Shown here one piece after another: positions 18,848 to 61,100 of a stretch of 64,000 nucleotides of DNA. The notes beneath the pieces were generated by a model, which saw nothing but the letters and a program-made list of their open reading frames with translations, was not told the DNA's origin and did not search any database. Source of the stretch: Moniliella sp. 'wahieum'. Taxonomy: Eukaryota. How positions within the stretch are numbered: the stretch's first letter is position 1; each line of letters opens with the position of its first letter. The stretch covers positions 1-64,000 of the forward strand of contig RSEE01000027.1 of the NCBI GenBank assembly GCA_003971905.1. The letters are read 5' to 3'. The position numbers and the translations under genes were made by a program.

Positions 18848-18951
18848 GCATCATGCATCATGCATCGCTTTTCTTCCGAGGGCTGGCTAGCGGTGACCGG
18901 TGACCGGTGACCGGTGACCTCACTAGTCACTGGTGACCCGTGACGCGTGAC
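18848..18951. repeat. Cluster of quasi-palindromic heptamer repeats: (GCATCAT)n, (CGGTGAC)4, TCACTAGTCAC, TGACGCGTGAC
   Basis: Read directly from the sequence; lies 60-160 bp upstream of the SEC72 start. Confidence 0.85.
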
Positions 18952-19011
18952 TGGCTACCACCCTGCTCCACGTGGCCCAGGTGAGCGTGTTTGCTGCCCA
19001 CCATCGCACCC

Positions 19012-19705
19012 ATGTCAGGTCCCAGATCGTCCAAGGCGGCCCGCCGGCCCCGACCGAAGAGCAGATGGCGTTGTCTGATGCCTCGTTCCAACGGGTGGAG
19101 CTCTCCTTTGACGACAGCGGCAAGCTCGTCTCGCCCACCCACAACCTCGACCTCATCAACCGTTTGGCCAATGCCATTGGCTCTCTGCCCCCCACCATGC
19201 CCTTCCCCCCTCCGCCCAATGTTGTACCACCCCAGCGCGCCATGGCCGTCAACTCCCTCAAAGAAAAAGGGAATGCAGCCATGAAGGAGAACGATCTTCC
19301 CGAGGCCGTCAAGTTCTACACGCTGGCCGTGGACTTGAGCGCGAACCGTCCTCGTGGGAACCAGCCGCTCTGGCGAGCGAGGAGCTTTCCATTTGCCTTT
19401 CCAACCGTCAGCTGCTCTCTACGCTGCCGGTGACTACATCGCTGCTGGCTGATGCTGATGCTGATGCTGTCGAATTGCGCCGCCCATGGCCCAAAGCTCA
19501 TTACCGCAAGGGCAAGGCTTTGGCTGGCTTGGGACGCTTTAGGGAAGCTCGGGAGGCGTACCAAGCAGGTCAACAATTCGATCCTGATAACCCGGTGCGT
19601 ACATCCTTGCCGTTTTTGTCTGTCCAATGGTACTAATGTGGGCGTGTAACTGGACAGGATTTCCTCAAGGCGTTGCAAGAGCTTCCCCGTAACGAACGGC
19701 CGTGA
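19012..19705 (+). CDS. SEC72: Translocation protein Sec72 (TPR protein of the Sec63 complex)
   Basis: PPPP...QRAMAVNSLKEKGNAAMK...AVKFYTLAV...RP(P)WE...SNRS...LRRPWPKAHYRKGKAL; intron 19595-19657 (GTGCGT...TACTAAT...CAG). Confidence 0.85.
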
Positions 19706-20615
19706 GTACTGAGTGGAGATGATGGTACCGGGGCTGGCCAATGTTTCGTTCCTTCGTCTCGTTCAATGTATGTCTGTCTGGTCCACGTCGCTCATTGTAG
19801 TCTTAGGCAGTGTTCGCTTGAGGTCGAGTGTCGACGCATTCAGGTTGCCAAGAAGACATCTTGTCATTTTTTGGACGATGGGGGCCAGGGCTAGTTGATT
19901 GGTCCTTGTAGTTTCAAGTGCGCGAAGGTGCTGTAGTGGTCCTTTGAGGCCACTGGACAGATGAGAAGGGGTTTTAGAAGTGGGTTTCCAGGCCCCACAA
20001 TCTACAGCGCCGCCATCCTATGTCAGGAAATCGTTGGGGCTTCCGCGCTATGGGTCTCTGGCTGAACCTTTGCACCAGCACGAGAACGAATCAATGGGCC
20101 GCTAGTGGGCTGGAGGTCGCACTTTTTCATGCCACTCGGCCAAGTCTTTTCGCCCCTCACTGGGGGCAATGGCCCGGTAGCTTTTGAAGATGTTTTGGAT
20201 GAAGCTGATCATGCAATAACACTATCAGCGTGACTCTCGACCTCTCTCTCCACCATGTGGGGCATCATTGTCTCGCGCTTTGCCTTCCATAGTTGTGTTC
20301 GCGTCGTCGAGCCGCACATTTTCATTCTCATCCTGGGCAATTGTCTCTCGTCTGAGGGCAGCTTGGGCACTGCTTATGAAGGACCGTATGATGCCCAGAA
20401 TCTTCTCGTTGGTGACGGCAGCACCTTCTGGCTACTCATACCCAAACCTCGACCCTCCCCCCAGCTATCACCCTCCTCTGTCCACCATCATTGGCTGTCA
20501 TAGATCTGGGATGGGAGGGGGACGGGTACAACCACGACGCGTCTAGAAAGGGAAAAGAATGGTACCTCATCGTCACCTGACCTGCTCCCAAATTCGGCCA
20601 ACATGCATTATGCAC

Positions 20616-20647
20616 ACCATGTTTAACCGCTACCATGTTTAACCGCT
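20616..20647. repeat. 16-bp tandem duplication (ACCATGTTTAACCGCT)2
   Basis: Two exact adjacent copies downstream of LEO1. Confidence 0.8.
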
Positions 20648-20720
20648 AACAATGGAAACCCAATACGATACATTGATTTTGAGGGGACGAAGAGGATCAC
20701 CCCTAGGCCACAAATTGGTC

Positions 20721-22343
20721 TCATTCCTCGTCGCTCTCAAGGACGACACGACGACGATGCTGGGAGCGGGGCTCCTCCTGCTCCTCATCAACGTCCATTG
20801 CGTCCTCATCATCTTTGGAGGGCGAAACAGAGCGGCGCGAACCCTTGGAGCGCCGGCCAGAAGCCACCCTATTACCGGTCTCTTCCTCTGCCGACCCCTC
20901 CGACTTTTCGGCCTCCTCCTCGTCACTGCTGTCAGCGCGGGCCTCCTCCTCTTCCTCATCCGTGACAACAAAGTCGTCTTGTTCGTAGTCTTCCTCCTCG
21001 CCGCCGTGTCTGTGAGCTGCACGGTGGGAACGAGCAGGGGGAGAAATTTCGCGGCGAGTGCGGTGGTACCCATCGTGAGCGGCTGCCAGGGCTGAAGTAC
21101 CGGCTCCACGTCGACGAGATGGTGCACCAAGGTCATCGTCGTACCGGTCCTCGGCTTTTTTCCGCTCTCGCTGCTTCTTGCGCTCAATTTCCTTCAAGCG
21201 ACGGTCCTCCAAGGCGGCCGACTGCTGGGTCAAGCTCCAATCCATCAGCCGTGGTGACCTGGGATCCAACCCCCAGGGGGCGTCGGTGGTGGTAACCTTA
21301 GCCACACGCTGATGTTTAACAGCTGCCGCGAGACGCCGGTGAGTCTTGCTGTTTACATCTGAAGGCTGGAATGCGAGCGCGCCCGAAATGGGTGTGCGAA
21401 CGCTCAGAACTTGTGCATCCGCATCAGGTACTACGAGGTACGCCAGTGCAGGGTTGCCCGAAGCCTCGGGGGCGGGCCCGCCATGGCTTTGCCCAAGGTT
21501 TTGTCGGTCACATTGGGAGTACCGGCTTGCATGTGCAAGTCGAACAGTTCTTTTCCCAATTGCATCGACACACTTCCGTCGGACCAAGTCACAATCCGGG
21601 CGTTCGACTCGGGAACAAAGCGCGTCTTGCCATCCGGAGTCCGCTCGTGGCGCCAACGCCAGCGGACTGTGTTCGTAGTCTTGAGCAACGAACGAAGAAG
21701 TTTGTCGTCCGCGATTTTAGCTTCGTTACCAGCCCCTGATTCGGTCGCATTCTCCTGGCTTGGGTCCCATTCGTGCTCATCAAAGGCTTGCTCGAGAGAT
21801 CCAAGAACGAAGGCAGCTTGGCAACCCAATGGCTGCGACCTTGGCGAACCGCCTGGGCCGGCAACATAAGGTTGGCATGGATTTCTTCCTCCTCCTCTTC
21901 CTCTCGGCCGCTTCTCCCTTTTGTCCCTCTTCCTCACGGTACTCGAGTGCCTCGCGACGTGCATACGACCCCTCAGACCGGGCAGGGGACCCACCCCTGG
22001 ACTGGGAACGAGAACGAGAGCGGCTCCACTCCCGCTCAGGCGGCGGAGGAGACGGAGAGATGCGGGAGGCGGGATGCTCGTCCCTTGGAAGAAACACGTG
22101 CTGATTTGGACTTTCCATGGCATGGTCATCAGAATCGGTGTCCCGCTGGCGGCGCTTGCGCGACACGATGGGGCCATCGTCATCATCCGAATCATCGCCA
22201 AAGAGGCCAGCGCTGCCGTGCGAGCTGGCTGGCGCAGGCGGTGCATCCTCCTCATTCCGAGGAGGAGAGCTGGGGGCAGGAACAGCAGAGGCCCCGTTGG
22301 CGGAGGATGGGCTCGCTGCGGGCGGAGAAGAGGGCTGCGACAT
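20721..22343 (-). CDS. LEO1: Paf1 complex subunit Leo1
   Basis: Acidic N-terminus (GLFGDDSDDDD), Leo1 core NTVRWR...ESNARIVTWSDGSVSMQLGKELFD, acidic C-terminus (DYEQDDFVV). Confidence 0.9.
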
Positions 22344-22566
22344 GGCCGGTCGAGGTGGTGTGCTGCCCACAGCGCGCGCAGGAAGCCAAGGCTCTTGTGA
22401 GGGCCCCGAGGGGAGCGAGCGTGCCCCCAAGGCGGAATGAATTCATTCCGCCCTGCGGCGCGTATTTGCTGACGGGGTAGGCTGATAGGCCTGCGAGCGG
22501 TGATTAACGAGTACAGAACGTGATTAAACATTAACCCCATGACCATCCCTCCATCCCAGCTATGCC

Positions 22567-24362: not shown

Positions 24363-24617
24363 CTGAACACTACTTTTCTTATAGCAAGACGTGCCTCAGC
24401 TTGATAATCACTCACATGTCACAGCCGCCATTGCCTGGGAGCCTTCATTGCATCCCTCCTGGCCTAATGAAGCGGGCGAGAGCAGAGCATGCTAGTTGAA
24501 GGCTAGGATCTACGAAGCGGCCATAATCGACATGATCAATGCGCCTACCGGACAAAGGACGACTAGCCCACCTACCAGCGAACAAAGCTGTGATGTCGAA
24601 ATGGTGTCGTGTAGCAA

Positions 24618-24692
24618 GTGACCAGTGACTAGTGACGCGTCTAGTCACTTGGTAACGCGCAGCCAGCAACCGGTAACCGGTAGCCGGTAACC
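24618..24692. repeat. Quasi-palindromic heptamer cluster (GTGACTAGTGACGCGT, ACCGGTA repeats)
   Basis: Read directly from the sequence. Confidence 0.7.
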
Positions 24693-25162
24693 TGGAGCTG
24701 CTCGCCGGACGCCGGCAGTGGCCGGCTAGCAACTCAGCCCGTTCCTGATCCAAAGCGGGCCGACTTTGACGACTGCGGCGCCCTGCTGGCAGAAAAAAAT
24801 GCTCCGCCCAAGGATAGGTGCTGTCTGCTGCCTGATGCTCGGGGCCAGCACCGCGCCACTCTGCGGGGCGGGGGCGCATGAGGAATACCGGCAAGATCCC
24901 AGTCTGCGTTGGGGTTAAGCCGGTTAGGCTGGCTGCGGGGCGCCGCCCGGGGACGGCCGGGCACCGGTCGGGCGTCCAACACTGCCCCCATGCCAGCGAC
25001 CGAACTCTCTCCATTTTGGCCCCGGCCTCCTGTTCGGGCGGCCGCGATCTCTCAAGCTGCCTCAGGTCCCCCAGCCCTCCCCCCGGTTTCGATCCACCAC
25101 CGTCGCCACTGCAAGTACTCCATCTTCTTCCCTGTCCTCATTCCCCACTCTCGCTTTCCTCT

Positions 25163-30045: not shown

Positions 30046-30680
30046 GGCGGCGGGGGCGGGAGGAGAGAAGGCACAGGGCAGAAGGGTGGCGAGGGGCGGT
30101 GTGGCGACCAGGGGCAGACCAAGCAAGCGCGGCTTATAAGGAGCAAGGATGCCCCTCCTGCATAATTAGAACGCAGCTGCTGGGGCGGCCGGTGGAGGAG
30201 AGCGCCGGAGCAGAAACGCTGCAGGCCAAGGTGCACTGCTGGTGCAGTGTGCTGCTGGCTGCGTCGACAGCCTCGACCTCAGTCGGCTGGAACCTGGAAC
30301 CGCAGTGGCCTAGCCGATGAAAACCTCGCGTTGAGGCAGCTGAGCGCTGGGGCTGCTGGAGCCCAGGCTCACGCACCATGCGCCATGTAAACCGGTGACC
30401 TCCCTCTTCTGTGTGCCTGGTGGCTCGAAGCTTGATCGATCCTTGATCGGTTGCTGGTTATCGAGTTATCAATTGTCCATGAGCTTTGTTTACGTTTGGG
30501 GTAGGATGGTGGCAGGGCCGAGCCAGGAACAGGGGCAGTGTCCGCTACCGGCTACCGCGGTTGGCCCTGCCAGGCCCAGTCCGCTGCCCTTGCAGCCGCT
30601 GGCTTGTCCGGCAGGTGCGGGGTAGCGAGACAATGTCTGGGATACGCTCCGCCTACGCGCTATGCATTATGGCGAAGGAG

Positions 30681-31388
30681 ATGATCGATGATCGATGACG
30701 TGTGACGCGTGACGGCTGTGCTGCTGCGGTGTGTTTAGGAGGCACCAGGGACACCACGGGCACCTGCTGGATACCCCCTACCCGCTGTGCCTGCGGCCCG
30801 TGCCCAGTGCTTGCGCATAGCGGCGGCTAATATCGTGCTGGGTGCCGCGGACCGCGGTTTTCGAACATTTGCTGTGGCCCTGTCCCCCCGCGTCTGGCCC
30901 ATTGTCCCGGCTGCCCCAACCAACCCATCTGGCGTTGATGTGCTGGCTTGGCGCTGCCCGCCCTGCCCAGCCCTTGCACCCGAAACCCCCGTGGCCCAGC
31001 CTGTGCGTCATCGACTTCGGCTCCCGCCCGCCTGTCCCACCTGAGCGTGATGCATTGATGCTGCATGCATTACACATCACATGTTACACTGCCCACGGCT
31101 GCCTTCCTGTCTGCCCATCCATTTTATCGCTTGCTCGCTTCACTAGTGCACCCTTCTCCGTATCATATCTCCATCATCCGCCGGCACCGATCATCGATCA
31201 TCGACCACCCTCAGCAACTGTGGCAGGCGCCAGAGAGCAATCCCCCACTTTAATGGTGATTCATCTCACTTTTATCTCTCCTTTCCTCTGCCCCCATCCT
31301 CACAGCGAAGGGAGTGACCCACCGCACATCTCGTAGAAGAGGTGTGCATGCCAGGGTCATTAATCATTCATCATGCATCATGCATCAT
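30681..31388. repeat. Dispersed quasi-palindromic heptamers (ATCGATG, ACGCGTG, ATGCATC units) upstream of YAT1
   Basis: ATGATCGATGATCGATGAC...GTGACGCGTGAC at 30681-30713; CATCATGCATCATGCATCAT at 31369-31388. Confidence 0.7.
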
Positions 31389-31730
31389 TCACCATCCACT
31401 CCATTGTCCCCCCTCTCCCCCAGGCCACAGATATACTTACTCTTCCCGGCGGCAAGAGTGCGGGGCGTTTCACCGTCGTCGCCCCACGCCACCCCCACGT
31501 CGGGAAACAACAATCGCATCACAGTTGCTCGGTCCCCACATGCCGAGCACCGCTGTATATATCGCTTCCGAGATCCTTAATAGATGCGTTCAAGGTTCAA
31601 CGTGTTCAACGTCCACTCTTCTCGAACTTTCTTCCTTCTCTCTCTCGGGCCTAGTATTGTTAGCATACCGATCGCTCCTCTCCTAGCCGCGCCCACTGGT
31701 GCCGGCGCCAGAGCGGCAGAGCGGTATAAG

Positions 31731-32106
31731 TGTAAGGGGTGCCGTTTTTCGTTTTCGGAACTTTCGCTACTTGTCTCAGAACCCTCGCGCTTAGGCACAG
31801 GCTTTTATTGGGCCCTCTGATAGCGACCGCTGAATATACTGGTGAACTTACTGACTCGCAAAGGGAGATCGGTTGAGACGGAGATGAGAGAGGTTTGCGC
31901 TTCTTTTTTGAAGCTTTTGCTTTTTTGAAGCTTTTTTGAAGGGCGATATTTATACTTCGGAGTTGGCTACTAAGTCTCAGTGGGAATGGTTCCTCGCTCG
32001 GATGTCAACCACGTTCATCCCTGTCCACACGCGCTTCCTAGAGTACGGGACCGGAGGCGAGAACCGGAGGGTCCTGATATCCTGGTGATCCCGCTGGTTC
32101 CTTGAC
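31731..32106 (-). mobile_element. Possible solo LTR of an LTR retrotransposon
   Basis: Quasi-inverted ends TGTAAGG...CCTTGAC, TATAAATA (31947-31954) then AATAAA (31804-31809) on the - strand, internal TTTTTTGAAG repeats, about 375 bp. No perfect CA end or target-site duplication at this boundary. Confidence 0.4.
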
Positions 32107-32752
32107 CTTAGTGGCGCTTCCAAGTAACCCCCGCAAGATGAACTGTTCGGTTTAGACGTAGCGTTCCCCCTGTCCCAGCCTTAAGCTCTGTCATGATATG
32201 GATTCTCATCTTGCGGTCAAATCCATATGATCGCTTATCTCAGATCAGTCAGAAGCTTGTATCCTACTATTGATGTGCTACACCCTCTAGAACTATTTTT
32301 GGTATCTTTTGACGATGACAGGAGTAGAGGGCGGGCAAAAAGGTGGCTGAGAATCGAGCGAAGAGGAAACTCCGGGGGGGCGGAGGGGCCGGTAAGGTGC
32401 AGTCCCCAGGCATGCCAAGCCAGCGGGCCTTGTGGCGGACCCAGCCTCTGATGTGGGCGTCAGGCAGCAAAAAGCGAGTCAGCCGAACGCGTATAACGTG
32501 TGTATTTGTTCGCGTATCATTGATGACATAAGCAGGCTCCGTTTGGGCCACAAGTTGGGCAGAGCCGACATGGTTAGGCTAGGGTGTGCATGCAGCCCAC
32601 TGCAAGCGTTGGTAGTGCAGCGCGGGTCTCCTCCACCCGCGACCCATCTTCGCCATCACCATCGGGCTCCTCCCCACCTCTTCCCGCAGAGCAGACGGAA
32701 GGAACTTCTTCTCGGCCTCCGGGCACATTCAAGGACGCATGCAGTGTCGAGG

Positions 32753-37372: not shown

Positions 37373-38962
37373 GGTGGAAATCGCAAGATGGTGGCCAAAA
37401 CCCAGAACGAAGCGTCTTCGGTGGTGTGGGGTTAAACGGCAACCGGTAAACGTTTGGGCTCCACGTCACCGTCGCCCGGCTTCTCAGTGGTTCGATCAAT
37501 TTCATCATTTCAGAAAGCTCAGACAACGCACTGGGGAATGATTCATGCAAGATCATTGATCAACCTACATTAATGAGATCAGAAAGTGGCTCGGCAGAAG
37601 TGAAAAAACGAATAGAATAGAGAGAGGGGTGGGTCTTCTGTTAGCACAGCACAGCATATGCTTTCATCGACAGACTATGCGCCTAAACGGCCCCGAAGTA
37701 CGGAAACTTGTAAGCCTCTCTCGAATCGATCATCCTTGGCAGTCACTAGTCATCAGAGGCAGAGGCCAAAACCTGCGATCTGGTTCAGGCCGTTCAGGGG
37801 AGGTGAGCATTTGGTTAAGAGCAATCCGTTGAGCCCCACAACGCTTTTATGATTTTAGGGCCGCTCAATGTGCAAACCCTGGGTACGATCCCATACAAGC
37901 TGAAGGAGGGCGCCAAGAGCACGTAAGAGATGCGAAAAAGAGAACTGTGTAGTAGTGTTACTCAAATTGGGTGAGGCCGAATGCATAAAGCCATTAGCAA
38001 ACGTCGAGTCAGAAGTTACCGAGAAGCAATGCAAAAGCGAACGAACAGTGGGTCTCATGGGGCGCATCGACTTTTGGGGGAGCATGCATCAAAATAAGTT
38101 ATTTTGGCATAAAATCAGGGAGCTTGCCCTGGGCGGCTAGCTGTGCAGAGAACTGCTTTACTTCTACCGGGGTGAGAAGAAACTTTCTGGTATGATAAGC
38201 CAGAACATGGCCTCAGGCTGCATCTCGGTTGTATCAGTCACTATCAATGCTCTGTCATTAGGCACGACCCCCTCACGGTCAGGAATGAAGTATGGGTGGG
38301 AGCGAATACCTTCATCGGCATCAAGTCCTGAACCTTCCCACAGAATGGCCTTGATACCACGCCTGTCTCCTCCGATCAGATGGCCCACCCTGCGTTCGTT
38401 CATTTTCGCATCTGAATGGGCGGTCCTAAGTTTGCTTGAGTACCGTCTCCTTCTCTCGGGCACCATCTCTCGGCGACATACGCAATCTCTTGTGGATCAT
38501 TTTGGCAGAGGCAAAACGAATGCTTGTGCCGGGCGCCGGGGCGAAAATGGCTCGCACTACGTGGAGCACAGGGACATGTGGGTGCATGAGAGAGGGGGAT
38601 GGCAAGCTAATATGGAGGGGAACGGCTGGGCGAGGGAGAGAATTAATAGCATCATCAGCGTCGGTAGAGAAAGGCAAGCGGCCGACTCCCTGCACCAGTG
38701 TTCGCACTACGTTCCTCTCGATGCTGGCTGGCTGCACAGGGGCAGTATCTGGCGCCGGCAGGGACCTGAGGCCTGAAGCTCGATGCGCCCGCCCAGCATC
38801 CTCTATGGTGCTCCCGGCGGAACATGCAAACGCGGGAAAGCGGAATCCGCGACTCGGCAGCGCACTGCCGGCGCAGAGGGAACATCGGATACCCTCCTCC
38901 TCGACGGCGGCTCGGAGAGTGTCTCTCTCTCGGCCGTCTGTTCTCACTTGCCCTCGCTCGAC

Positions 38963-40638: not shown

Positions 40639-40660
40639 TGACTAGTGACTAGTGACTGCA
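40639..40660. repeat. (TGACTAG)n heptamer repeat between the convergent TES1 and RPL3 genes
   Basis: TGACTAGTGACTAGTGACTGCA; its first 21 bp recur at 61071-61091. Confidence 0.8.
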
Positions 40661-40828
40661 TCCCGTCTTTAATTAAACCGAAAGTCTATCAACAATACAA
40701 GGTCCCAATATGGTAGCAATGGCAATGGGATTCGCCATGCAGGCATGGTGGCATACGAGGTGGCAGAACACCAGACATATTTTGAGGTAGGTTTGCAAAG
40801 CTCAACGAGGAATGAGAAACAAAATAGT

Positions 40829-42001: not shown

Positions 42002-42003
42002 AG

Positions 42004-42113
42004 TGCTTGGTGGTCGACGGAAGGAACAGGTCGGGGCTGCTCGGCTGCTTGCCCAAGACGCCAACAAGCCAAGAGGGTGCATAAAGAATAGGGTTAGGTT
42101 GAACTACAGTGCC
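42004..42113 (-). promoter_or_regulatory. RPL3 promoter/5' leader motifs shared with RPL4
   Basis: On the - strand: GGCACTGTA (42105-42113), CTTGGGCAA (42049-42057), CCACCAAGCA (42004-42013). AATAGGGTTA is on the + strand at 42087-42096. Confidence 0.55.
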
Positions 42114-42912
42114 CCCCCTGCGTGTTGCCGCAATTTTTAATTACTGCGGCCCGCAGCAAATTAGGTGCCTTAGGCCTTATTTGAAACCAACAACATGGTG
42201 AGACGAGAACTGTGGACGAGCATTTGCCCCACACTGCAACAACGCAACCATGTCTCGTGCCCAACAGCACCTCTTTCAAGCCCTCGGTTTGGACTTCGCG
42301 GCCGCTCCGACTGGGCAAACGCACTGTTATAACGTCCTTGGCGTACACTCATAAGACTCATGATGGGAATTCGTTCCCCTTCCCATGTAATGTCAAAGAT
42401 TATTGCACGGACAGAGACTGTGGCTTCTACTACGAGGACGTCAGAGGACAGACATTCGCGGTGTGTTAAAGGACTGAAGAGCCTCGAAAGTGTTTTTCGC
42501 TGCCATGACGAGATGACGCACAGAATGGTCAAGAGGTCACTCTGTTCAAAACGAAATTGTCGTAGGCGCTAGTGGTATATGGACGAGAATACGGGCATGC
42601 TCGACAAGTGCAACCTCTACTCTTCTATCGACGAAAAAATGCATGTAAGGGTGAGGGGGGGGGGCAGTAGGCATTCAGTCTGTGCCATAGCACGCCAGTA
42701 TAAGCAACACAGAATTGATGTAACATCAATACAGAGTGTAATCGGGTCAGGGGAATGTAAAAAGGTGTGCCAAACACAGCGGGGCCTCGGAGAGTACTAC
42801 CAACAGTGCTGCGGTATCGAGGGAGTATAGTAGGTTGCTCCATGAGATCGCGGGTGTATATAGGAGAGAGGTCGTGAAAGGGGTGAGTGAAGACAGGATG
42901 CTCTCCAAAAGA

Positions 42913-46687: not shown

Positions 46688-47477
46688 GGCGACGGCGGCG
46701 GTGCAGACGCGGATGCACCGGTCGATGCCAATAAAAACGCAGAGCTAGCTAGCTGGTGGGGGAGCCCAAGGTGCCCGGCTGCAACCAGCGGCTCCCAAAT
46801 CCAGCAGATACGCGGCGCGGCGCCGCTGGGTCTCAGCGGTGATCTCACCCGTGACTTGGGCTGGGGCCGACGCGGGTGGGGGGCGTACACAGGCGTGGTG
46901 CGGTCGTTTGGCTGGCCGGCTCCGTGCTGCGTGCAACTAACTAACTAGCCAGAGCAGGCCAGAGCGTGCTGCAGCGGGAAGCTTGCCCTCGGCAGCCGTG
47001 CAGGCCGATGCTTGCACCGGGACCTGGCCACTAGGCACTGCAGCCGCAGGGGCGCACCATGTCTCGCCTGCTCCGTCACAGGTGGGGTGCCTTGCGGCCG
47101 CTAAGCCGCATCGGGCGGGGGGGAGGGGGCAGTCTGGGACAGTCTGGGGCAGTCTGGGGCAGCACAGAGAGCACCGCGCCGCCCGATTCAGTTCCCGACG
47201 GGGCCGCGGGTGTGATGCCTGCCGGTGCATGTGCCTGTGACATGTGATGCATGATGCATGCATGGGAACACCCGATGGGGTCTCTCGGCGCTACTCTTCA
47301 AGCTTCAGCTTCACTCCCCAGCATGCAGCACCCGGGGCCCCGAAAAAGGGTCCCGATCCCCCTTCTCTTGGAGATTGAGGCATCGCTCCGATCTGGTGGC
47401 CTACGACGATATAGGGAAGAACTGTGGCTAGGAGGGGCCAGGGCTAGTCACTCGATATGGTCACTTGTCACTTGCAG

Positions 47478-47524
47478 AGCTTCAAGCTTCAAGCTTCAAG
47501 CTTCAAGCTTCAAGCTTCAAGCTT
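47478..47524. repeat. (AGCTTCA)6.7 tandem heptamer
   Basis: Perfect tandem array; each junction forms the palindrome AAGCTT. Confidence 0.95.
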
Positions 47525-48863
47525 ATTCACGCGTTCACGGCCACTACTGTTGTTCGCCACCGACCAGCCGGTATACTGTCTAAGAAGTGGTCCGGCCAGC
47601 TTGCGTGTGATCTGAGACGCGCGTGACATTGTGGGAATGCAATATGCACCTCCGATAGCTGAGCGCTGACCAACTGACCAGGCTGACCGCGTGACGTATC
47701 GGTTGTGGCCTGTGGGGTTTGACGATGTTGACGCGTTGACGCGTGGACGTTTGGGCGTGGGCCGATGGGGCCTGGGAGCCTGGGGCCTGGGCCGGTTGGG
47801 GGGCTTGCTGGGGGGCGATGGCAGGGTTTGGGAGTGGTGATCGATGATCGATGATCTCGGTGATCGACGTTGGGGCCTCTGTTAATCCGATCGGCCGCCG
47901 GCAGGCAGAGACTGATCTCTTGGCATGCAGTGGTTGCCTGCGATGGCTACAGGGATCGGACGCACGAGATGCTGAGTGTACGCACAGGCGGCCTAATATT
48001 ACCGGTTACCACGGGCTTTACCCATTTGCCGTGCATCGCGTTTCCTGCACCCCACCCTGCTGACACATCCGGTCACCTAGGCCAACACGTTATACATAGG
48101 ATAGACAGGAGGTTTAACGCATACTGTGTGTGCTGGTGGCCATCGGTCACCGATTACCGATCATGATCATTTCATCGATCTCAGATCTCATCCATCATCG
48201 AGATCATCGGCATTCTGTGATTTGTGGGACCTGATGAGTATGAGAAAGGCCTGTACACCCATGCTCCATGCGTGTGATGCACACATCCGAAAAGACGATG
48301 CAAAAGTGATGAACGTTGTGAACCAGTATCTCAAGATCTCATCACCAGAATAAGAGGGCCAACCAGCGTCAAGCTATCCCGGATACCATCCACCCTGCGT
48401 ACCTTGAGTATGCCGTCGAGTAACTGAGACTTAGTACTCCACTCAGCTGAAGTCAGCGCTCAACCTCAGGCCTCGCCCTCACCAGTGCACTGAGCCTGAA
48501 AGCGAAACGCCGCCATACCAAGTAAAAGAGGGTATGCATAAAGGTTGTGACGCACAATCGGGGGAGGGAAGGTATATATCAACAGCTAAAATGGAGAGAG
48601 TAGAGGTTAAAACGGTTGTGTGGGCGAGACATGGGTGGTAAGAACAAACAAGAAAGAAAAAGGAAGAATTGGTGTGCGTAAAAGCAAAAACAGACAAACC
48701 ACGGAGAGAGAGAGAAGCACGGCTTACATGCTTAAAGGGGTGGCAGAGAGGGATGACATCCACAAAGAGTCCAACAGATGAGCACAAGATCAAACGGAGG
48801 CATGCAGAGTACTTGGATGGAAGTTGAGAGACAGAGGGTTGGACTCGAAGGGGGGGTGCGGGG

Positions 48864-52781: not shown

Positions 52782-53653
52782 GCTAAAATGTAATGCACCA
52801 ACCAACAGGAGGGGAGCAGGGGTACAATGTACGAAGCGGTTGGAAACGGGGTTTTCGTTAACGTTAATGAGATGGGCACACCGCGATACCGGGTTAGGTG
52901 ATGGGGAGGGACAGAAGTATGCCACACAGCCCACGGCGAGAGCGGGGGCGGCGGCTGTGATGTCGAAGGAAGAGAACGATGATGAGCAGACCGTCAGATG
53001 GTCTTTGCAGCAGCGCCCAATGGGGGGGGGGGGGGGTCGATGGAGGTGGGGATGATAATAGTGCGATTGCAGGGGACACAGGGAATGCAAAAAAGGTTTC
53101 GAGTGGCGGCTGAGTGGAATGTGCGGCGCTGACGTACTTGCGGGGAGGGGGCTGTTATAATATAGCGCGAGGGTCGGTACTTAGTGAATATATATAGTAA
53201 TTGCCTCCTGATGTGGGTACTGGGCCACTGCGCCAGTCACCGCCCACAGCAAACTAGGAACCATATAATAAACGCCGTTATGCTCAGCCCCCCAAACTGC
53301 TCCGCGTATCCTCTTACTAGCTTTACTCCTCATCTGCCCTCCTCCCATCCGGCCCGGGACGATTCCCTCAGGCCTCAGAGGATCAGCTGCGCTCAGGCTG
53401 AGCTCGAGCGTCGTTGTCGCTTCGCGCCCGCTCGTTGCGCAACAACATTGCGAGCAATCCAGCCCATAAAACTCCTTTCCGAGACCTTCTCTCACATCCA
53501 GGAGCACCAAGGTCATACATATAGCAATCCGTGTTATACGGCATGCAAAAAAGGATTGAACATGTAATCCGCCACATCATACTTCAAGCTTTAACTCACC
53601 TTCAAACTACTTCTCATCTTCACGAGCTTCTCATCACGTATTAACCGTGCGCG

Positions 53654-53744
53654 TGATGCATGATGCACAATATGATGTACACATGGTGTACACGAGGCAC
53701 ATCATGATCTGCATGATCCATGCGTGACGCGTGACGCGTGACGC
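53654..53744. repeat. Quasi-palindromic heptamer cluster (TGATGCATGATGC, (GTGACGC)3)
   Basis: Read directly from the sequence; upstream of the kinase gene. Confidence 0.8.
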
Positions 53745-55380
53745 TCATTTAAAAACATTGCAAATGCATTCCCTTCTTTTGGACGCCGGCCGCGCACTGC
53801 CGCTCATATATCCACGAGAGAACTATAAGGACACGACCTATGAATATGACCGTTTGCAGCCTCTTTTGTGCTGAGGAATACCCACAGCGCCTTTTCTCTT
53901 AACGCTGGCGCACAGCCGTCAGATATATATACCGGCACAAAGTGGTTGCAATGGAAAATGTGGCACACAATAACTGGTCTTTGAAATTTGACACTACAGA
54001 TGTGAGGAGAAGAGAGAGGAGTTTGACAGCTGAGAGGGGAAGAGCAGCTTTTCCTTGTTTTGTCGAGCTACGGCCCACATGCTGTGGAGCTTATTATGAC
54101 CAAAAGGTCCCTTAGCTAGAGTTCGACCAGTGGGAGCACTATCACGGCCCCATTAGAGATAAAAAAAACGTACCGCAGAAGAGAGGGTGGTTAAGACACA
54201 AGTCCTCTGATGTAAGCATTTGGTGGGCGAAGGAGACGGGAGAAATCAAATAGAATAAGCGAGCTGGAAAAGCAACAAGGGGAGGGCGCAAAGCCTGATG
54301 CGGGCGGAACGAATCAGTCCAAACGAGCAATGTCACATTCACAACAGATCATCGATCAACTGGGGAGAGGACGGGGAACCCTGCCCTCTCAGATCTCACA
54401 TCTTCGGCCCTTTTCGCCGGTCACCGCCACTAGAAGCTCGCTGGGTTTTGTCTCACTTCTGTATTTTCCTCGTCTCATATCCGGTGGTGACTGGTTTTTT
54501 ATGTCGCTTGTAGGTGTCGTTGGTTGGCTTAAACCACAGCCCCTACTATCACTGGGATTGAATTTGCCTTTTGAGGGGCCATGAGGCCCAGGACTCGTCT
54601 CAAGAGCAAGACACAGAAGAATGGGACCACAGCAGGGACGAGGTCACCAAATCGCGTGTACTCCAATAATAGTATTTACCTCGGCAATCTCTTCTCCTTT
54701 TTCATTGGATCGATTTTGAGATTGCTTTGTAGGGTTAATCGTGTTAAAAGGGACCTAAAGCCCGACCAGACGAGGGAACTATAAGGAGGAAATGAGGGAA
54801 CGGACAATACTTTGAGGAGTAAAGCCACACAAACTTAGCCGCTGACAAAGGACGCTGTGGGAATACTGAAGGAGTCTGGGGTCATAAGACGAAATGGCGA
54901 AGGAAGAGAGCCAAGAACGCGAGCGTCGGTCTCGTTTTTTGTTTTCCAAAACCTCCTGTCCAACCGTAAACTCCACGTGGGGGCAGCCGTATAACCCCAA
55001 TGGCACTATATAGGCCACTGTCAGGGAGCTTCAGCCGGGCGTTAAAGAGCGGATATATCCCAATGGAGTAGAAAGAATCTAGGATAGAAAGAAGGAAGGA
55101 GAGGAGAGGACAGCCGAGACTGAGGTGTTTTTGCTATATATATATGTAATACATCCATGTACGCCAAGCACAATTAAGAACCTGCAACATCAAAAGAGAG
55201 AGAATGGGAAGCTTCAATAGACTATACATACTATATATACCAACGGAATGTAGGCAAAAGGGGAATGAGAAATGGATAAGGCATTAAGAATATACTGAAG
55301 GGAAAGTAACACCAAGAGAAAATCAAGCAAAGAACGGTAACATGATGGCGATGGTAGGCCAACAGTAGATTGATACGAGA

Positions 55381-58300
55381 CTAACGGAGGCGGCGTCCTA
55401 GACCCCCCGAAACAGCACGCCATAAGGCGCGAGCGATCATGATACCCCAGCGGTCAAAGGTGCGAGGTAAAAAATCCACACGATAAAGAGCAGGGTTGTA
55501 GCAGAGGAAGAAGTTAAGGATCATCGCAGCCCAGTACGGGAGCCCTGCAGCCAGCATCTTCAACGTCGATGCTGCCCCCACAGTCCAAAAGAGGTACCAT
55601 GGAGAAGGTAGAGCGAAAAGGCATTCCGACCGAAGATGGACCATTCGGAGAGTGAAGAGAGTCCGGACAAAGTTGCTCAAGTCGCAAAGGAGGAAGAAAG
55701 AGAAGACCCAAATACAGTCTTGTATGGCGGGTAGGTAGTAAGCAATGGGGTCTGCGTCCACCTGTTGGGAGAGCCAGTCTGGAAGTTAGCCTTGATACCA
55801 AACTCACCCCGGGGTGCGTCAAAGGTTCCATTCTGGGTGAGCCACGTAATGACGGCACCGAGAGAAGAAGAGGACCCAGGCGAAGGGTTCTAAACTCATG
55901 GTGTACTTTCCCAGCACCTTGATTCCTTGCTGAGAGTTGGCGATAATTGAGACGGTTGTCCAGGTCGGCGATCATCAGTCCACCAATGAAGAAATAGTCG
56001 TACCGGTTAGACCACCATTCCAATGTAAAGCACGCCATGTAAAACCCATAACGCTTCCACGGATTCTTGATCTCCCTAGAGATGAGGGCACATAGATAGA
56101 CCGTCCAAGACGACTGAATAATGACGGGAACGGTCCAAAGAATGCCGGTAGCGTAGTGGCGCGTGAGGGCGTGATTGAGGGGGGTTGCATAAACCAAAGT
56201 GCGGGTAATCGTTGATGAATTCGCCAGCCGACCATAGTCTTGGAAGTACGACCAGATGCTGTACGTCCGCGAGGGAAGACGAGAGACCCAGTAAAAGGCA
56301 CCCTAAAATGAAAAGAGGATAGGTTAGGATCATAGCTGCAATGAGACCAATTCAGACCACGACATGAACGTACAGATTCGATCAGAAAATAGTTAATGAA
56401 CAAAGCGGCCGTGATGGTGGTACCCAGGCGAGGAACTCGAGTGAAGATCTGCTGTGCCAAATCTTGCAGATTTCCACGTACCAAGTACCTGTTGGCAATT
56501 ACGCGGGCAGCCAGGACAAAAAAGATACCGACATTGAGCCCACCATTACATATGATTGGACCCAAGATTCGGTAGATCCACTTGTCAAACCCATAATGCG
56601 AAGCCTCATTTTCAGTCGTGAAGGCGTATTCGTAAATGAGCATCCAGTGGTGCAGCGATACAAGCAAGCAAGCAAATCCACGAAGACCATCCAGATACTC
56701 GACTCGTGCCGCGCCTGAAGCTGTCGCCCGTCCCTCTCCCTTGTGAACAAACACCTTGTACTGATACGTTCCCAGAATGTTTCCGCAACTCCTTCTCCCT
56801 TTTCCGCCTTGTCAGCCTCGGCGGCATTGGCGGGCTTGGCCAGCTTTCCCTGCTCATCGCTCTGGCTGGTTGGGGCAGCCGGCTTCCACTCGGCGATCGG
56901 TGTCACCCAGTGTACAGGCGTCGCCGAACCATCTTCCAACAGGAGTTGCGGATGTGGGTGTAAGGTGACCATATCCGGCATCGCAGGTGGCGCTCCTAAC
57001 CCGTCCTCTCCAGATACAACCGATGGCTCGTAAACCGAGAAGCCGTGGTCGCCCGATGGAATCTGATCCAAACGTTGCTGCCGGAACGAATCGGTGGTAC
57101 CCATGGCACCCGAACTAACGGCAACTGGGGTAGAGAGCGACCCAAATTGGGTCATCGTCCCTGTAGGCGTACCACGTCCCGTCGGAGTGGAAATGCCACT
57201 GCGGATCCGTGCAGCGAGGTCGGCGGTGCTTCCAGAGGGGGACATAGCGCGGCTATGGGGAGTACCGGCATGTAGTGGACCGAAGGAAGGCGATATCCGG
57301 ACTTGAGACTTGAGGCAGGCTGACCTGGGAACTAGTTTCGGCCTGGTGCTGGTAAAATGGGTCTTCGATTATGCCCTCCTCTTTTTCGTCAATGTCGGAC
57401 GAGTCATCTTCAACGTCGTCAAAATGGTCCGCCAAGAGTTCGGGGTTGTCCCAAGTAGCCATTGCCTCGTCAAACACTTTTTGATCCGCCATTTCGGCCA
57501 GCTCCACATCGGTGTAGTCGCTATCGCGGAGACGTTTGGACGGAGTTGGGTGAGACACGTCCGAGGGAGTACCAGTCTGAGAAGCCTCTTCGGCCTTGAT
57601 CTTTGCCTGTTTGTCGTTGTAGTCGTCATAGAAAATGCGACGTTTGATACGGGCCGAAATCACACGGCGAATGTAGGCGTGAACGAATAGGACAGTAAAG
57701 ATACCGATTGAGATGGTAAAACCAATCCAAGCGTATGGACGAGGGTGGTAGTGTTTGTGGGGAAAGCCTGATTTTGGGTCATCACCATGTCCACCTCAGT
57801 GGAACCGCGGAGCGTCCAGTCCTCTGTTGAGCATACTTGGGCCCCTCCAGCGGCGGAGCATTGAGTCTCAAATTGGGAGGTGCGGATGCGAGCGACGAGT
57901 TGAAAAAGAGACGAGCGTATCGGATTTGTGCAAGAGGGGAGCTGTGCCTCGGTGGACCCCGAGAACCATGGGAGAACCGTTGGACCAGTGCTTGAAGCTA
58001 AACGGTGCCGGAAGAGCAGGGATCTGGGTCCCCTTTTTCTTGGTTTCAACCACCGACGTTAGACTTGCATTGCTTCCGTCGTTGCTCCAGCTCAGCACGT
58101 TCGGGAGCCAGTCCATTCGATATTCGTGCCAAACATTGTTTTCCATACCTGGGCTAATGTTCGATTGGTTGACAAACACAGGTTTGAGCGAGTTCGAGCT
58201 GGAAGAGCCCATGGCGACAACGGCATCCGTCGCATTGTCGTTACTGAAGAAGGATGTCTGAACAACAGACGACTCATTGTACGCGAGCTCAATGTCGAAT

Positions 58301-58779
58301 TCAGTGCCAGCATTGACATCGGCTGGAGGCAAAACCATAGTGCGGAATGAACCGTACAGAATGTCCCGGCGACGCGTCTGGAACTGGCTTCCATAAACAA
58401 CGCGGTTTTTGGTGTCAGCTGGGGCAACCATCATACCCATACTGTTGTTAGTGAGAAAGGTGTTGTTGTACGACACAGCGCTGCGCCAGGTGGCGGAGAA
58501 GTCGTCCTCCCATTCATTTGTGCGTTGACTGTTGATCCAAGCTTGCTGACCTGCGCCAGCATAACCTGCACTATCCCGCCCGAATCGGTCCGCAGACTTT
58601 TCCGGAACAAAGACGACTTGGTCCGCGGCACCAGTCTCATTAAAGTAGGTGATGACTGTATCGGTAAAGAGGGCAAGCGTGGAAGGGTCTTGGTAGCCGC
58701 AAGCGCACTGAGAGCGGACGCCAGACAAGGTGGTCATCGTGGCTCCGACCAACAGCAAAGCAGTGGTAACAGCCTTCAT
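55381..58779 (-). CDS. Membrane protein: signal peptide + GH16/ConA-like domain + TM helix + linker + acyltransferase-3 (OafA-like) domain
   Basis: MKAVTTALLLVGA signal; CACGY, RRDILYGSFR, WHEYRMDW, FKHWSNG (GH16-like); RVEYLDGLRGFACLLVSLHHW, IFFVL, RVPRL, GILWTVP (AT3); introns 56303-56373 and 55762-55807. Confidence 0.85.
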
Positions 58780-59046
58780 CTGGAAGACGGGGATGAGAAA
58801 ACAGATGAACGTCAGTACAGCACCTAAGAGGGCCCTTGGGGTTTGGGACGGTAGGGGTAGGAGCAGGCGACACACCTGTGGAGCGGCGATGAGATGTTGG
58901 GTCGGTTAAACGCTTGCCGAGTATATTAGAGCGCTAGGACAACCGGGAGGGTGCGGGGGATGATACAAAGATAGAAGGAAGAAGGAATGGAAAACAGGGG
59001 ATGGTGGAGTACGGCTGGTAGAACGAGGTGGAGAAATATGGTGTCG

Positions 59047-59093
59047 GAGGGGCGAGGGGGCGAGGGGCGAGGGGGCGAGGGGGCGAGGGCGAG
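59047..59093 (+). repeat. G-rich tandem repeat (GAGGGGC/GAGGGGGC) x6, G-quadruplex-capable
   Basis: Six G3-G5 runs separated by CGA. Confidence 0.8.
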
Positions 59094-59499
59094 CTGCTGG
59101 GTGGCGACTGGCGGGCGAATGCTGGGGTCTTTAAGCCGATGTATATGGAGGGCTGCTCGCGTATCAAAATTAGCGACGACGGGCACTGTGTGGGCCGGAA
59201 CGCTTTCCATCTGTGGGTGCAGCCGGTACGGACTGATAGCGTGCTTACAGATCTCAGGAGCGGCGGCATCTGTATGTATCGGCCTGTTGCCGTCGTATAC
59301 TAGTCAAATCGCAGACATTGCGACGAGCGAAGCCGTTCGCAGAGATCGAACGGGGAGAGCAGTGCCAATGCATGTCACCTGTATAATAGAAGCGTGAAGC
59401 CAAACCTCAGAGGACTACAAGTGTTACATGTCCGTAATTCACTGTCCTCAAGCCTGGAGCCTCAGAGGCCTCACACGCTCGCATGCCATATGCCACGGA

Positions 59500-61100
59500 C
59501 CTTCGGATCTCGGCCTCACTAACGTTTAATAACGTTTAACGTACTTCACTTGGTCTTAGGTCTGAGATCAGACTGATCTATCTCTAAGATCTAAGAGACC
59601 TTCAAGCTTCAAGCTTCGGGCCTCCGAGATAATCGATAAAACGTTAAATTGTAGACTTGGTCCTACGTACTATCGGCACTCACATGGTCTTTAATTGATT
59701 TAGAAGTGGCTTTTGTGGCGCAAGCATCATCGATAATGGATAATTGTCGATGATTTAATAATCGATCCAATAGATAATCCTCGGGACGCCTTTGCCAGTC
59801 ACATGGTCACATGGTCACGATGTCACGCAGTTACGCGTTACGCGTTACGAGAGTGTGAGAGCCTTGAAGCTTGACTCAGGACTCAGGCCTGAGGCCTGAG
59901 GGCCTGTCAATGTCAAGCTTGAAGCTGAAGCTTGATAGCTTGGATAGCCTGAGGCCGCCTGTGACTTCACGCGTGATGTGTGGCGCTTGGTGTTGTCCCC
60001 CGCCCTGGGGAAGAGCGAAAGATTGACGGAAAGGTGAAAGCGGGCAGCAGCAGGCGAGCAGCTTGAAGCGTGAACCGTGAACGCGTGAACTTGAAGACCG
60101 GAATAGAAGCGCATACTTGCCCGAGGAGGAAAGTACCAGTTTTGCCAAGTAGTTAACGTTTAATGTTTAACACGCTTAACACGCTTAACTAGATAAAACG
60201 TGACGCGTGGCGCGTGAGATCTGAGATCTGAGATGTGAGAGCGCCGCTGAAGCTGAAGACAGTCGTCGTAGGCATATTGGCTCACATGTGAGTTGTGAGT
60301 ACTGAGAGTCCGTTGTATAGAGCCCTCTTTGAGTGCTAGCCCCAGGTCTCGTCACGCGTCAGACTGAAGCTGTGAGCGCTCAGGGTTATTGACCACGCGC
60401 TCGGTGCTCCAGTATACCCCGCTGCCTCTCTTTCTCTTCCCTGATACACGTTAAAAGGAGACGTGGTTCCTCGCTGAGAAAGCCGAGGTGGATCTTGCAA
60501 AACAGCGAGGGGCTTACTCTGAAAGACTGTGACGCGTGTGAGACGCGTGACGAGAGGGTGGCCACTTGGTGGCCGGTGGCGGGCGAGAGGTTCAATAAGA
60601 TTGTGCACACTGAGCAGCGCTGTGAGGCCTGTGGGGCCGCTGACGCCACAGAGCGGGGGCTATCAGTCCATGTCAGCGCTCAGCGCCAGCCGGTGAACGC
60701 TGAACAGAACGTTGAACTTTGGGTGAAAGAACCACGTGCGAGCTACTTATGCGAGTGCGAGCAGCGAATGTCGAAGCCCGCGAGATGCGCGACGGACAAA
60801 TGTATATACCCCCCGACCACCTGACCATACGCTTTCGTAGTGTAACGAAAGTTGATATGCACGAGGACTATGCAAAGACGCCACACTCGGAACAACCCCC
60901 CAGTCTCGCATTGTGGCATTCAAATTGTTATTGTGGGGAGTCACACTATGCCAGAGCCACACTGGTCACTCACTGGCACTGCTTGAAGCCTGAAGCTCGA
61001 CGGAAGCTCTTGACATGTGTGTGATATCTCAGTATAGCTTAACTACTAGTGACTAGTGACTGCATTATAGTGACTAGTGACTAGTGACTGCTCTCACGCG
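59500..61100. repeat. Island dense in short palindromes and quasi-palindromic heptamer repeats
   Basis: (CAAGCTT)2 at about 59601, (GTTACGC)n 59830-59849, (AGGCCTG)2 59885-59900, (TGAGATC)n 60215-60234, CACATGTGA, TGAGTACTGA, TCAGCGCTCA, (ACTAGTG)n 61045-61091. Confidence 0.8.

Follow-up and report, generated by a model that had tools for sequence, protein, structure and literature searches.

Palindromic heptamer repeats in the intergenic DNA of a Moniliella species are probably transposon excision footprints

Introduction

Small repeats are known from the smut Ustilago maydis, a statement that reportedly goes back to Laurie et al. 2012 and Schirawski et al. 2010. These 10-bp repeats are numerous, lie scattered between genes and have been proposed as footprints of past transposition (PMC4081816; papers cited by PMC number are cited for the part of their text that was available). 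For hAT, Transib, RAG and MULE systems, hairpins on the flanking DNA and footprints with P nucleotides have been documented (PMC5499845, PMC5873905). The Ac/Ds (hAT) footprints of plants, Saccharomyces cerevisiae and Candida albicans combine the target duplication with short palindromic P insertions from either flank, with one or two dominant products and microhomology at the join (PMC5873905). At RAG coding joints and in Transib, a flank hairpin (PMC5499845) is opened by the host and leaves perfect short palindromes. Among DNA transposons, the CMCT clade comprises EnSpm/CACTA, Mirage, Chapaev, Transib, Plavaka and ESTA (PMC12730594).

Here we analysed 64,000 nucleotides of Moniliella sp. 'wahieum' (the window), together with larger samples of the same genome. 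A preliminary description had noted tandem heptamers in its intergenic DNA, each consisting of an A..T palindromic hexamer plus one hinge base, and had mentioned similar repeats in Ustilago. Intergenic repeats of U. maydis are indeed in print, but the available part of PMC4081816 gives no sequence, rule, target site or element for them, and the two are likened here by description: both are small, numerous and intergenic, they come from the same subphylum, and the minimal unit here is also 10 bp.

Results

Reality of the period-7 pattern

The heptamer repeats of this smut-related fungus are a real pattern. The units named in the preliminary description were present at all 19 of the 19 window positions given for them, and the A..T hexamer grammar was followed by 117 of 119 symmetric period-7 arrays in 334 kb of the genome. 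Perfect period-7 runs of at least 14 bp numbered 38 in the window versus 4.4 ± 1.9 in 30 local dinucleotide shuffles, and 21 of them had the palindrome-plus-hinge form (0.20 in shuffles). For the same class in the window, a period-5 control was at chance (14 versus 14.8 shuffled) and a period-9 control gave 0. Among TNA-N4-TNA motifs with the same hinge in the 334 kb, 319 of 609 had a palindromic core, where chance predicts about 1 in 16; the frame controls gave 8/271 (ANT), 38/606 (CNG) and 34/798 (GNC). One 17-mer array occurred 500 times in the 69.5-Mb assembly, and its reversed control 0 times. Coding and non-coding DNA differed as well: conserved coding DNA (43.6 kb) held none of the 217 units, versus 1.2–1.4 per kb elsewhere.

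The hinge had been described as usually G. C or G did predominate (96 versus 21 with A or T among the 117 arrays), but any base is allowed, and the invariant of the units is T-N-A. The window contains 61 TNA-core-TNA units grouped in 47 runs, two of which (6654 and 14629) fall outside the range of the preliminary description.

The core is copied from the flank

The core had been taken to be free, which our counts contradict: it repeats, in inverted form, the two bases next to a target pq-TNA-xy, from one side or the other. Of 172 informative units, 36 and 27 corresponded to the two mirror products (0.7 expected for each); in controls the numbers were 0 and 2 of 124 (ANT) and 3 and 0 of 278 (CNG). 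Single units showed an extension of exactly 2 nt on one side (36 right, 40 left, 6 one-and-one), while the flank extension of non-palindromic controls fell off without a 2-nt peak. One flank matched in 31 of the 47 window runs, both in 10 and neither in 6. The mismatched form outnumbered perfect 10-bp palindromes about 8-fold (319 versus 38 in 334 kb). In mixed-core arrays, the left flank fitted the left core in 6/11 and the right flank the right core in 9/11, compared with 1/22 in the swapped control; the hinge changed within 6 of the 11, which counts against the explanation preferred below.

Simple slippage had been judged insufficient, and this held: plain 7-bp duplications, the direct copies of adjacent bases that an ordinary slippage repeat would add, showed no excess at T.A (54, versus 60, 60 and 96 at control centres). 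Copy-number changes within existing arrays do fit slippage in the allelic comparison.

Rarer forms, with a gain of 8 or 9 bp (+8/+9) instead of 7 (+7), carry the whole 7-mer twice around one or two palindromic bases; those at 47727, 60076, 31595, 37783 and 53703 had been missed previously. The spacer between the two 7-mers consisted of inverted (P) bases in 23/27 (1 nt) and 30/46 (2 nt), with 1/13, 1/19 and 6/22 in 2-nt controls. Such forms numbered 35 and 22 at T.A (both strands), and (2, 1), (4, 1) and (10, 4) at the control centres A.T, C.G and G.C. Here the target duplication is present on both sides of the scar, as we call the units in keeping with the interpretation given below, and its length and centre are those of the element family's duplication. 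The scars of the window are as follows (strand unassigned throughout).

6654..6663, isolated TNA-core-TNA unit that matches neither flank; either an old scar or a chance occurrence
14629..14638, isolated unit, again matching neither flank; likewise an old scar or a chance occurrence
18848..18951, cluster of +7 scars and arrays with cores TGCA, CCGG (three times), CTAG and CGCG; the allelic haplotype differs in copy number
19703..19714, lone +7 scar, core GTAC, right-flank match
24412..24692, scars with cores CATG and CTAG; decayed CCGG array with A hinge
30680..31388, cluster with a two-core chain (TCGA left, CGCG right) and cores TCGA, TTAA and TGCA
31595..31610, +9 scar with two complete copies of the 7-mer around 2 palindromic bases; 9 bases absent from the allelic haplotype; less informative because the target is symmetric
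37741..37798, +7 scar (core CTAG) and +9 scar at 37783 (GTTCAGG-CC-GTTCAGG)
38765..38776, lone +7 scar, core GGCC, left-flank match
40639..40657, array of two units, where the allelic haplotype shows CC-TGA-CT, an empty target
42167..42179, +7 scar with T hinge, upstream of RPL3
47236..48462, large cluster of 14 units; longest array at 47478-47524, +8 scar at 47727; no unit in the diverged subgenome's orthologous spacer
48273..48279, empty target TG-TGA-TG; +9 scar in the allelic haplotype
53366..54398, cluster of 7 units upstream of a kinase gene; +9 scar at 53703 with palindromic bases from the right-hand copy
59583..61089, densest cluster, with 17 units, 9 cores and hinges G, C, T and A; +8 scar at 60076; allelic haplotypes show array differences of up to 28 bp

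Alleles and subgenomes

Empty and filled target sites were both seen across allelic haplotypes. In a 302-kb allelic alignment, whose indels may be gains or losses, the rule fitted 17 of 36 clean 7-bp and 4 of 12 clean 9-bp indels; it fitted 0 of 12 clean 8-bp indels, which counts against our preferred explanation. By our own reading of the alignments, the core was not present in the short allele in 10 of the 17. Among 547 unit alignments between haplotypes, 195 contained an indel and 287 were identical. Scar T and A differed between alleles at 30 of 1408 positions, versus 3.7% for flanking A/T; ascertainment or alignment bias may underlie this low divergence, as might weak selection. Two orthologous spacers held 14 versus 0 and 7 versus 0 units, and units were conserved in neither of 2 among the 3 comparable spacers. 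Scars were present in both diverged subgenomes, so the process is either older than the element copies described next or arose twice.

An element family with a matching duplication

The same genome contains a young inverted-repeat family of ~4.9 kb whose 7-bp duplications are centred on T-N-A. Five copies of this length differ from their majority sequence by 4–28 substitutions; a short element of 378 bp also occurs. The ends consist of 83-bp inverted repeats plus subterminal repeats, with the termini CTCACTG..CAGTGAG. An exact 7-bp duplication was found in 5 of 7 two-ended copies, the flanks being unequal in the other 2. Flank positions 3 and 5 were T and A in 17 of 18 termini that had been found without using that pattern (background ~4%), and the allele of one element site carried a single 7-mer. 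No element-versus-scar allele pair was obtained among 4 sites, at which one allele was empty, one was not found, one was swamped by a repeat and one gave no answer.

No intact transposase was found, although a CACTA-like gene on contig C34 is a candidate for one; no internal open frame of the five copies' majority sequence exceeds 184 aa. The tested frame had no Pfam match, and Transposase_21 (PF02992) matched neither this frame nor the element loci. The alignment to P0121, P0122 and a CACTA-like frame of contig C34 covers an H(3)H motif and the E after it; a C(2)C motif lies in a separate upstream frame, and the frames are broken so that the triad is unreadable. A connection to PF02992 is indirect: the element frame matched P0121 (E 3e-4 in 1.8 billion), P0121 matched the C34 frame (E 1e-16, pairwise), and the frame next to the latter reached E 2.5e-5 against PF02992, below the cut-off. 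Homolog searches with the element's frame returned no named protein.

The element recalls the CMCT clade and CNIRT6 of Cryptococcus neoformans in the CACTG of its inverted ends, its subterminal repeats, an apparent H(3)H before a conserved E and a weak resemblance to a CACTA-like transposase of the same genome (PMC12730594, PMC12810828). However, CNIRT6 ends begin with CACTG (PMC12810828), whereas the element here has CT-CACTG, and it does not share the CA..TG termini of most CMCT members (PMC12730594). Duplications are 2 to 5 bp in the clade (PMC12730594) and 3 bp in CNIRT6 (PMC12810828), against 7 bp here. Fungal hAT7 and Kyakuja (KDZ) do make 7-bp duplications in basidiomycetes, but Kyakuja is without inverted ends, and the available part of PMC12730594 mentions no T-N-A preference or footprints for either. 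The hAT dimerisation domain PF05699 had no match in the genome, in a search whose controls were equally silent. PIF/Harbinger (3-bp duplication, DDE_Tnp_4) was rejected on the length of the duplication and because PF13359 had no match.

The element's targets appear narrower than those of the scars: A/T stood beside T-N-A at 19 of 20 symmetrised positions, versus 134 of 300 for scars. Unless this preference has changed, the family is therefore not the sole source of the scars. Scars also exceed element ends by three orders of magnitude. Element-end matches numbered 23, of which 14 were retrieved and the other 9 carry 3 mismatches, near the control count of 7. A search for termini at C/G-rich targets gave 124 matches, and the 100 of them that were listed contained no additional convergent pair; blind scans of 0.76 and 0.94 Mb for inverted ends plus duplication revealed no such element.

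Discussion

Probable excision footprints

We consider it probable that the heptamer repeats are transposon excision footprints with P nucleotides, expanded by repeat hits and slippage. We infer excision from the sequence rule, the alleles with and without a filled site, and the element family with its matching duplication, all of which were seen directly. Each flank would be sealed on excision as a blunt hairpin, the geometry which, together with P nucleotides, characterises RAG and Transib. Opening a few bases from the tip would add inverted bases. The main product would keep one 7-mer intact with its 2 P bases, which replace the first 2 bases of the other copy, the join falling at a T or A common to both copies in register; the result would be pq-TNA-xy-y'x'-TNA-xy or its mirror, a net +7. 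A simple route would be opening 3 nt from each tip to give two 6-nt palindromic overhangs, A-xy-y'x'-T and A-q'p'-pq-T, which could pair at both end bases and, after ligation and replication, yield the two mirror products about equally. On this route the A..T hexamer would be the overhang and the hinge the base outside it. As a scar contains new targets, repeat hits and ordinary slippage could build arrays, hits on both sides would chain two cores, and scars in coding DNA would be removed as frameshifts.

In contrast to RAG and Transib, a duplicated 7-bp target would fix the register, so that the product is nearly always +7. Against the footprint explanation, the product is more uniform than the Ds footprints of Candida, with 28 types in 128 (PMC5873905); the excess of scars over element ends, the unequal flanks of two element copies and the missing element-versus-scar pair weigh in the same direction. 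The centre of a Ds palindrome is the complement of the flank's last base (PMC5873905), whereas the scars centre between bases, hAT-type centring being at chance level (15/235). Unlike Ac/Ds footprints, they have a 7-bp T-N-A target and pile up to ~1 per kb of non-coding DNA.

The preliminary description had proposed fold-back or template-switch synthesis as one cause. A nascent strand ending in T-N-A would fold back, copy 2 bases of itself and resume at the foot of a 7-nt mini-hairpin, a host process without an inserting element; fold-back with duplication has been described in rad27 yeast (PMC5677150). Inverted copying is indeed involved, and single-strand fold-back would yield the +7 product in both mirror forms and with the 2-nt extension. 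However, it does not duplicate pq and fails for the +8/+9 forms, which repeat the whole 7-mer and are common at T.A and rare at control centres, and it leaves unexplained both the T-N-A restriction and the match to a real 7-bp target duplication. It is largely refuted by these forms and, in our judgement, quite improbable. The same break geometry might instead have been produced by another agent, with other or older T-N-A families or a transposase-derived host nuclease making most scars and the family found being a minor or late contributor. The mismatched target spectrum, three more CACTA-like transposase loci and the scars in both subgenomes speak for this; yet no second 7-bp T-N-A family turned up in 0.94 Mb (redundant) or beside those three loci. 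This alternative, which differs from excision by the present family in the agent alone and overlaps our preferred explanation, seems unlikely.

Selection for cruciforms, a binding geometry or stop codons had also been suggested. Arrays are clustered and confined to non-coding DNA, T and A diverge less between alleles than the flanks, and some cores correspond to known factor motifs, such as the MluI box. On the other side, the core tracks the flank and not a consensus, perfect palindromes are a minority, allelic turnover is fast and two of the three spacers that could be compared show no conservation of units. That the arrays are binding sites, structures or boundary marks kept by selection is thus unsupported and very improbable, although single scars may have been co-opted later. 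A basecalling or assembly artefact might be suspected in an indel-rich assembly (1,234 clean 1-bp indels in the 302-kb alignment), but absence from conserved coding DNA and the units identical between haplotypes argue against it, and we give it almost no credence.

A bolder version of the footprint explanation, which we regard as doubtful, would involve very frequent transposition of a CACTA-related lineage not yet described, which targets 7 bp around T-N-A and forms blunt hairpins as RAG does, repair by ligation of two mismatched 6-nt palindromic overhangs, and scars that each provide better targets and form the genome's main tandem-repeat class. Promoter-side lattices might then generate palindromic factor-binding motifs, some of them co-opted, and the U. 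maydis 10-bp repeats might have the same origin.

If the footprint explanation is correct, this one eukaryotic genome preserves transposon excision and hairpin repair in tens of thousands of datable traces, a figure extrapolated from ~1 unit per kb in 334 kb, in which one 17-mer was twice as common as assembly-wide. It would also provide a route from excision scars to new tandem repeats and in-vivo evidence on flank cutting by CACTA-related elements, make the U. maydis footprint suggestion directly testable by the rule given here, and advise caution against reading these motifs as regulatory signals. Literature searches found no description of this rule, and the available parts of PMC4824034 and PMC5414199 have no passage on the repeats; if the U. 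maydis repeats follow the same grammar, the pattern is already partly in print. Flap-processing mutations, as far as the available parts of PMC13493898 and PMC12633238 describe them, fitted the pattern no better. A metagenome scan with one array matched at least 122 loci; the multi-core pattern was not above background among the matches listed, from which absence in relatives does not follow.

Other candidate elements

Large allelic insertions (13 gaps examined) showed no 7-bp T-N-A duplication. No inverted ends were detected at the three PF02992 (CACTA-like) loci, one of which has open frames of 543, 251 and 446 aa. A 3.6-kb inverted-end element on contig C18 is single-copy and without a 7-bp duplication, and a second convergent pair of ends on contig C16 was due to chance. 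At 31959-32206, a 247-bp repeat proved to be a retroelement-like fragment whose ends vary and which has no relation to the scars, and a 235-bp repeat, at first sight long inverted ends, is a solo LTR that has 5-bp duplications.

Genomic setting and allelic comparisons

The assembly holding the window comprises 69.5 Mb in 223 contigs. RPL3 encoded in the window was most similar to that of Tilletiaria anomala (82% identity), followed by Violaceomyces (78%) and Malassezia (77%), which places the host in Ustilaginomycotina. As natural comparisons for the window's contig, C27, we used its allelic haplotype, C5 (about 93–97% identical), and a diverged pair, C9 and C18, which are 69–92% identical to C27 in alignable parts and about 87–95% identical to each other. 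Across the whole window, these contigs fall into two allelic pairs, an arrangement like that of an allotetraploid or of a hybrid retaining both haplotypes. Three further copies of RPL3 lie on C95, C97, and C109. Other window genes include RPL4, Leo1, a carnitine acyltransferase, an acyl-CoA thioesterase, a protein kinase, and a GH16 protein. Many 1-bp indels, probably sequencing errors, break reading frames in the assembly.

Two window intervals differ structurally between haplotypes:
18126–18315: unrelated in sequence between haplotypes; on C5, units of about 24 bp are tandemly repeated
31959–32206: retroelement-like fragment, high-copy (748 search candidates) and polymorphic; C5 also has an insertion facing window 35434, and this copy shows a duplication of about 13 bp

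A genome-wide heptamer pattern

The heptamer pattern is real and genome-wide. All units named in the preliminary description, each a palindromic hexamer plus a hinge base (TNA-N4-TNA with a palindromic core), were present in the window, and the excess it expected over shuffled sequence was found: 21 period-7 arrays of palindrome plus hinge were observed where shuffles gave 0.20, and neither period 5 nor period 9 showed an excess. In 334 kb from C27, C9, and C95, 119 of 209 perfect period-7 arrays were of this kind; 117 of the 119 carried an A..T hexamer, and 15 of the 16 possible cores were represented. Palindromic cores were favored as proposed, being enclosed by 319 of 609 same-hinge TNA-N4-TNA. 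Palindromic N4 was near chance for the three closing pairs other than T..A, and TNA spacers of 2 (45/152; chance 1 in 4) or 6 (11/329; chance 1 in 64) showed little excess. The expected split from coding DNA also held, as none of 217 units fell in coding DNA that is conserved between the subgenomes (43.6 kb), and the density was 1.2–1.4 per kb in all other sequence, introns, UTRs, and repeats among it. The main window clusters (30680, 47236, 53366, 59583) sit upstream of neighboring genes, as judged by eye from open frames.

The core is copied from the flank

One-unit arrays made up 232 of 268. Writing the target as pq-TNA-xy, with primes for complements, the core equaled xy-y'x' in 36 and q'p'-pq in 27 of 172 isolated units with differing flanks, where 0.7 was expected for each; plain duplication (4/172) and hybrids (0–3 each) were near background. 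These matches indicate that the core arises by inverted copying of either flank, and contradict the earlier view of cores as free and interchangeable. When single units were scored for a 2-nt extension, 36 extended right, 40 left, 6 one-and-one, and 21 not at all. Clean indels between allelic haplotypes numbered 36 at 7 bp, compared with 15, 23, 12, and 12 at lengths 5, 6, 8, and 9, and 17 of the 36 fitted the flank-copy rule exactly. At window 40639, the allelic haplotype carries the bare target. In two-core arrays (n = 11), the left flank agreed with the left core in 6 and the right flank with the right core in 9, and swapped pairings agreed in 1 of 22; this is the outcome predicted for a single site that took hits on its two sides. 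C-N-G and G-N-C centers showed a slight flank-copied excess (6/31 and 6/32 right-only, about 2 expected; C27, C9, C95, and C109 samples), which may reflect looser targets.

An element family with a 7-bp T-N-A duplication

A pattern search identified a convergent end pair 4.85 kb apart on C11, with 83-bp inverted ends and subterminal repeats. As this copy was chosen by target pattern and has unequal flanks, its termini were left out of the counts. The remaining copies of this family (long copies about 4.9 kb; ends CTCACTG..CAGTGAG) were found by searching with the element end alone and by a DNA search with a short copy:
C23: exact 7-bp duplication GATCATG
C34 and C29: exact 7-bp duplication GTTGATG
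C35: exact 7-bp duplication CATCAAC
C20: 378-bp short copy, exact 7-bp duplication GATGATG
C38 (stretch L154): 174-bp copy, unequal flanks with T-N-A in register on both

The unequal flanks at C38 and C11 (stretch L141) both fit the target register, a pattern that recombination between copies or a rearrangement would leave. At the C35 site, the allele contains a single 7-mer, confirming the 7-bp duplication.

Eighteen termini were identified independently of the target pattern, and in 17 of them flank positions 3 and 5 were T and A; the 18 represent 10 insertion sites, since both ends of one copy and two allelic pairs are among them. The exception, on C8 (L149:186–200; allele on C23, L143:196–209), carries a 2-base insert separating the target from the element end and matching the reverse complement of the target's final two bases, which may reflect either an aborted excision with P bases (inverted bases from hairpin opening) or a dinucleotide slip. 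Five long copies differed from their majority sequence by 4–28 substitutions, which, against a haplotype split of about 3.7%, indicates that they moved well after the split. The coding part was broken in all long copies, and no intact transposase was found. One 184-aa frame contains an H(3)H motif and is weakly linked, via two unnamed proteins, to a CACTA-like transposase on C34.

Probable origin of the units as excision scars

P-nucleotide footprints are textbook knowledge. Given the sequence rule, the empty and filled alleles, and the element with its target, transposon excision is quite probably the best explanation of the heptamer scars. On excision, flank DNA would be sealed into hairpins, which we infer to be blunt because the palindromes center between bases and the hAT-type offset was at chance (15/235). 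The host would then open the hairpins and join the ends, steps known from hAT, Transib, RAG, and MULE (PMC5499845, PMC5873905). Joining would proceed in register through the T and A common to both copies. If each hairpin were opened 3 nt from its tip, the result would be two palindromic 6-nt overhangs whose end bases match, and this would account for the A..T hexamer, the fixed gain of 7 bases, and the near-equal mirror products. Alternatively, trimming and fill-in on 1-nt microhomology would yield the same letters, indistinguishable by these data. Arrays longer than one unit would require repeat hits or slippage.

Fixed-length fold-back of a nascent strand was our first model for the +7 scars. 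However, fold-back leaves pq unduplicated, whereas scars with the whole 7-mer twice exist; joining of two opened ends predicts just such scars, with the two 7-mers around P bases (net gains of 8 or 9). At T.A centers with the 7-mer twice, P bases explained 23/27 one-base and 30/46 two-base spacers. The corresponding values at control centers were 2/3 and 1/13 (A.T), 4/15 and 1/19 (C.G), and 10/36 and 6/22 (G.C). This type made up 4 of 12 clean 9-bp allelic indels and none of 12 clean 8-bp ones.

Several observations weigh against the excision reading. The hinge changes within 6 of 11 mixed arrays. Conversion of element to scar was not caught at four sites where an allele was sought, one being empty and three lacking a usable allele. 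A/T flanked T-N-A at 19/20 symmetrised positions in the family's ten targets versus 134/300 in scars, so that other or older families are needed for the scars. Selection for a conserved function of the arrays, as suggested earlier, is in turn disfavored by indels in 195 of 547 unit alignments between allelic haplotypes, and by unit numbers of 14 versus 0 and 7 versus 0 in two of the three most comparable same-gene-flanked spacers of the two subgenomes (17 versus 30 in the third; three further intervals of too different length were left out). T and A positions differed between alleles at 2.1%, compared with 3.7% for flanking A/T, a difference that may stem from bias in ascertainment or alignment or from weak selection; the core figure was higher, partly from misaligned indels.

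Relation to known systems

The scars represent known chemistry with an unusual target and unusual accumulation. In its workings the element resembles a flank-hairpin transposon of the CMCT/Transib type, yet it lacks the 2–5-bp target duplication and CA..TG termini of EnSpm/CMCT and is therefore not filed as EnSpm. Members of the CMCT clade are described with duplications of 2–5 bp, hAT7 and Kyakuja with 7 bp (PMC12730594); that paper's sequence data may include a related family. CNIRT6 is described with CACTG ends and 3-bp duplications (PMC12810828). U. maydis has many 10-bp repeats for which an origin as transposon footprints has been suggested (PMC4081816); these could overlap the present pattern, which would lower its novelty. 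In a literature search covering few subscription papers, we found no published account of the flank-copy rule or of footprints as a genome's main repeat class.

The CACTA-like transposase gene on C34 (L096:3262–6872) has long open frames; the element copy on that contig is some 8 kb away. The gene occurs once in the assembly, with no inverted ends detected, and is a candidate transposase source or domesticated gene. A single 3.6-kb element on C18 (L115:3489–7066) has 33-bp inverted ends of CACAG type and no clear duplication, and shares an inner stretch with a CACTA-like locus on C127.
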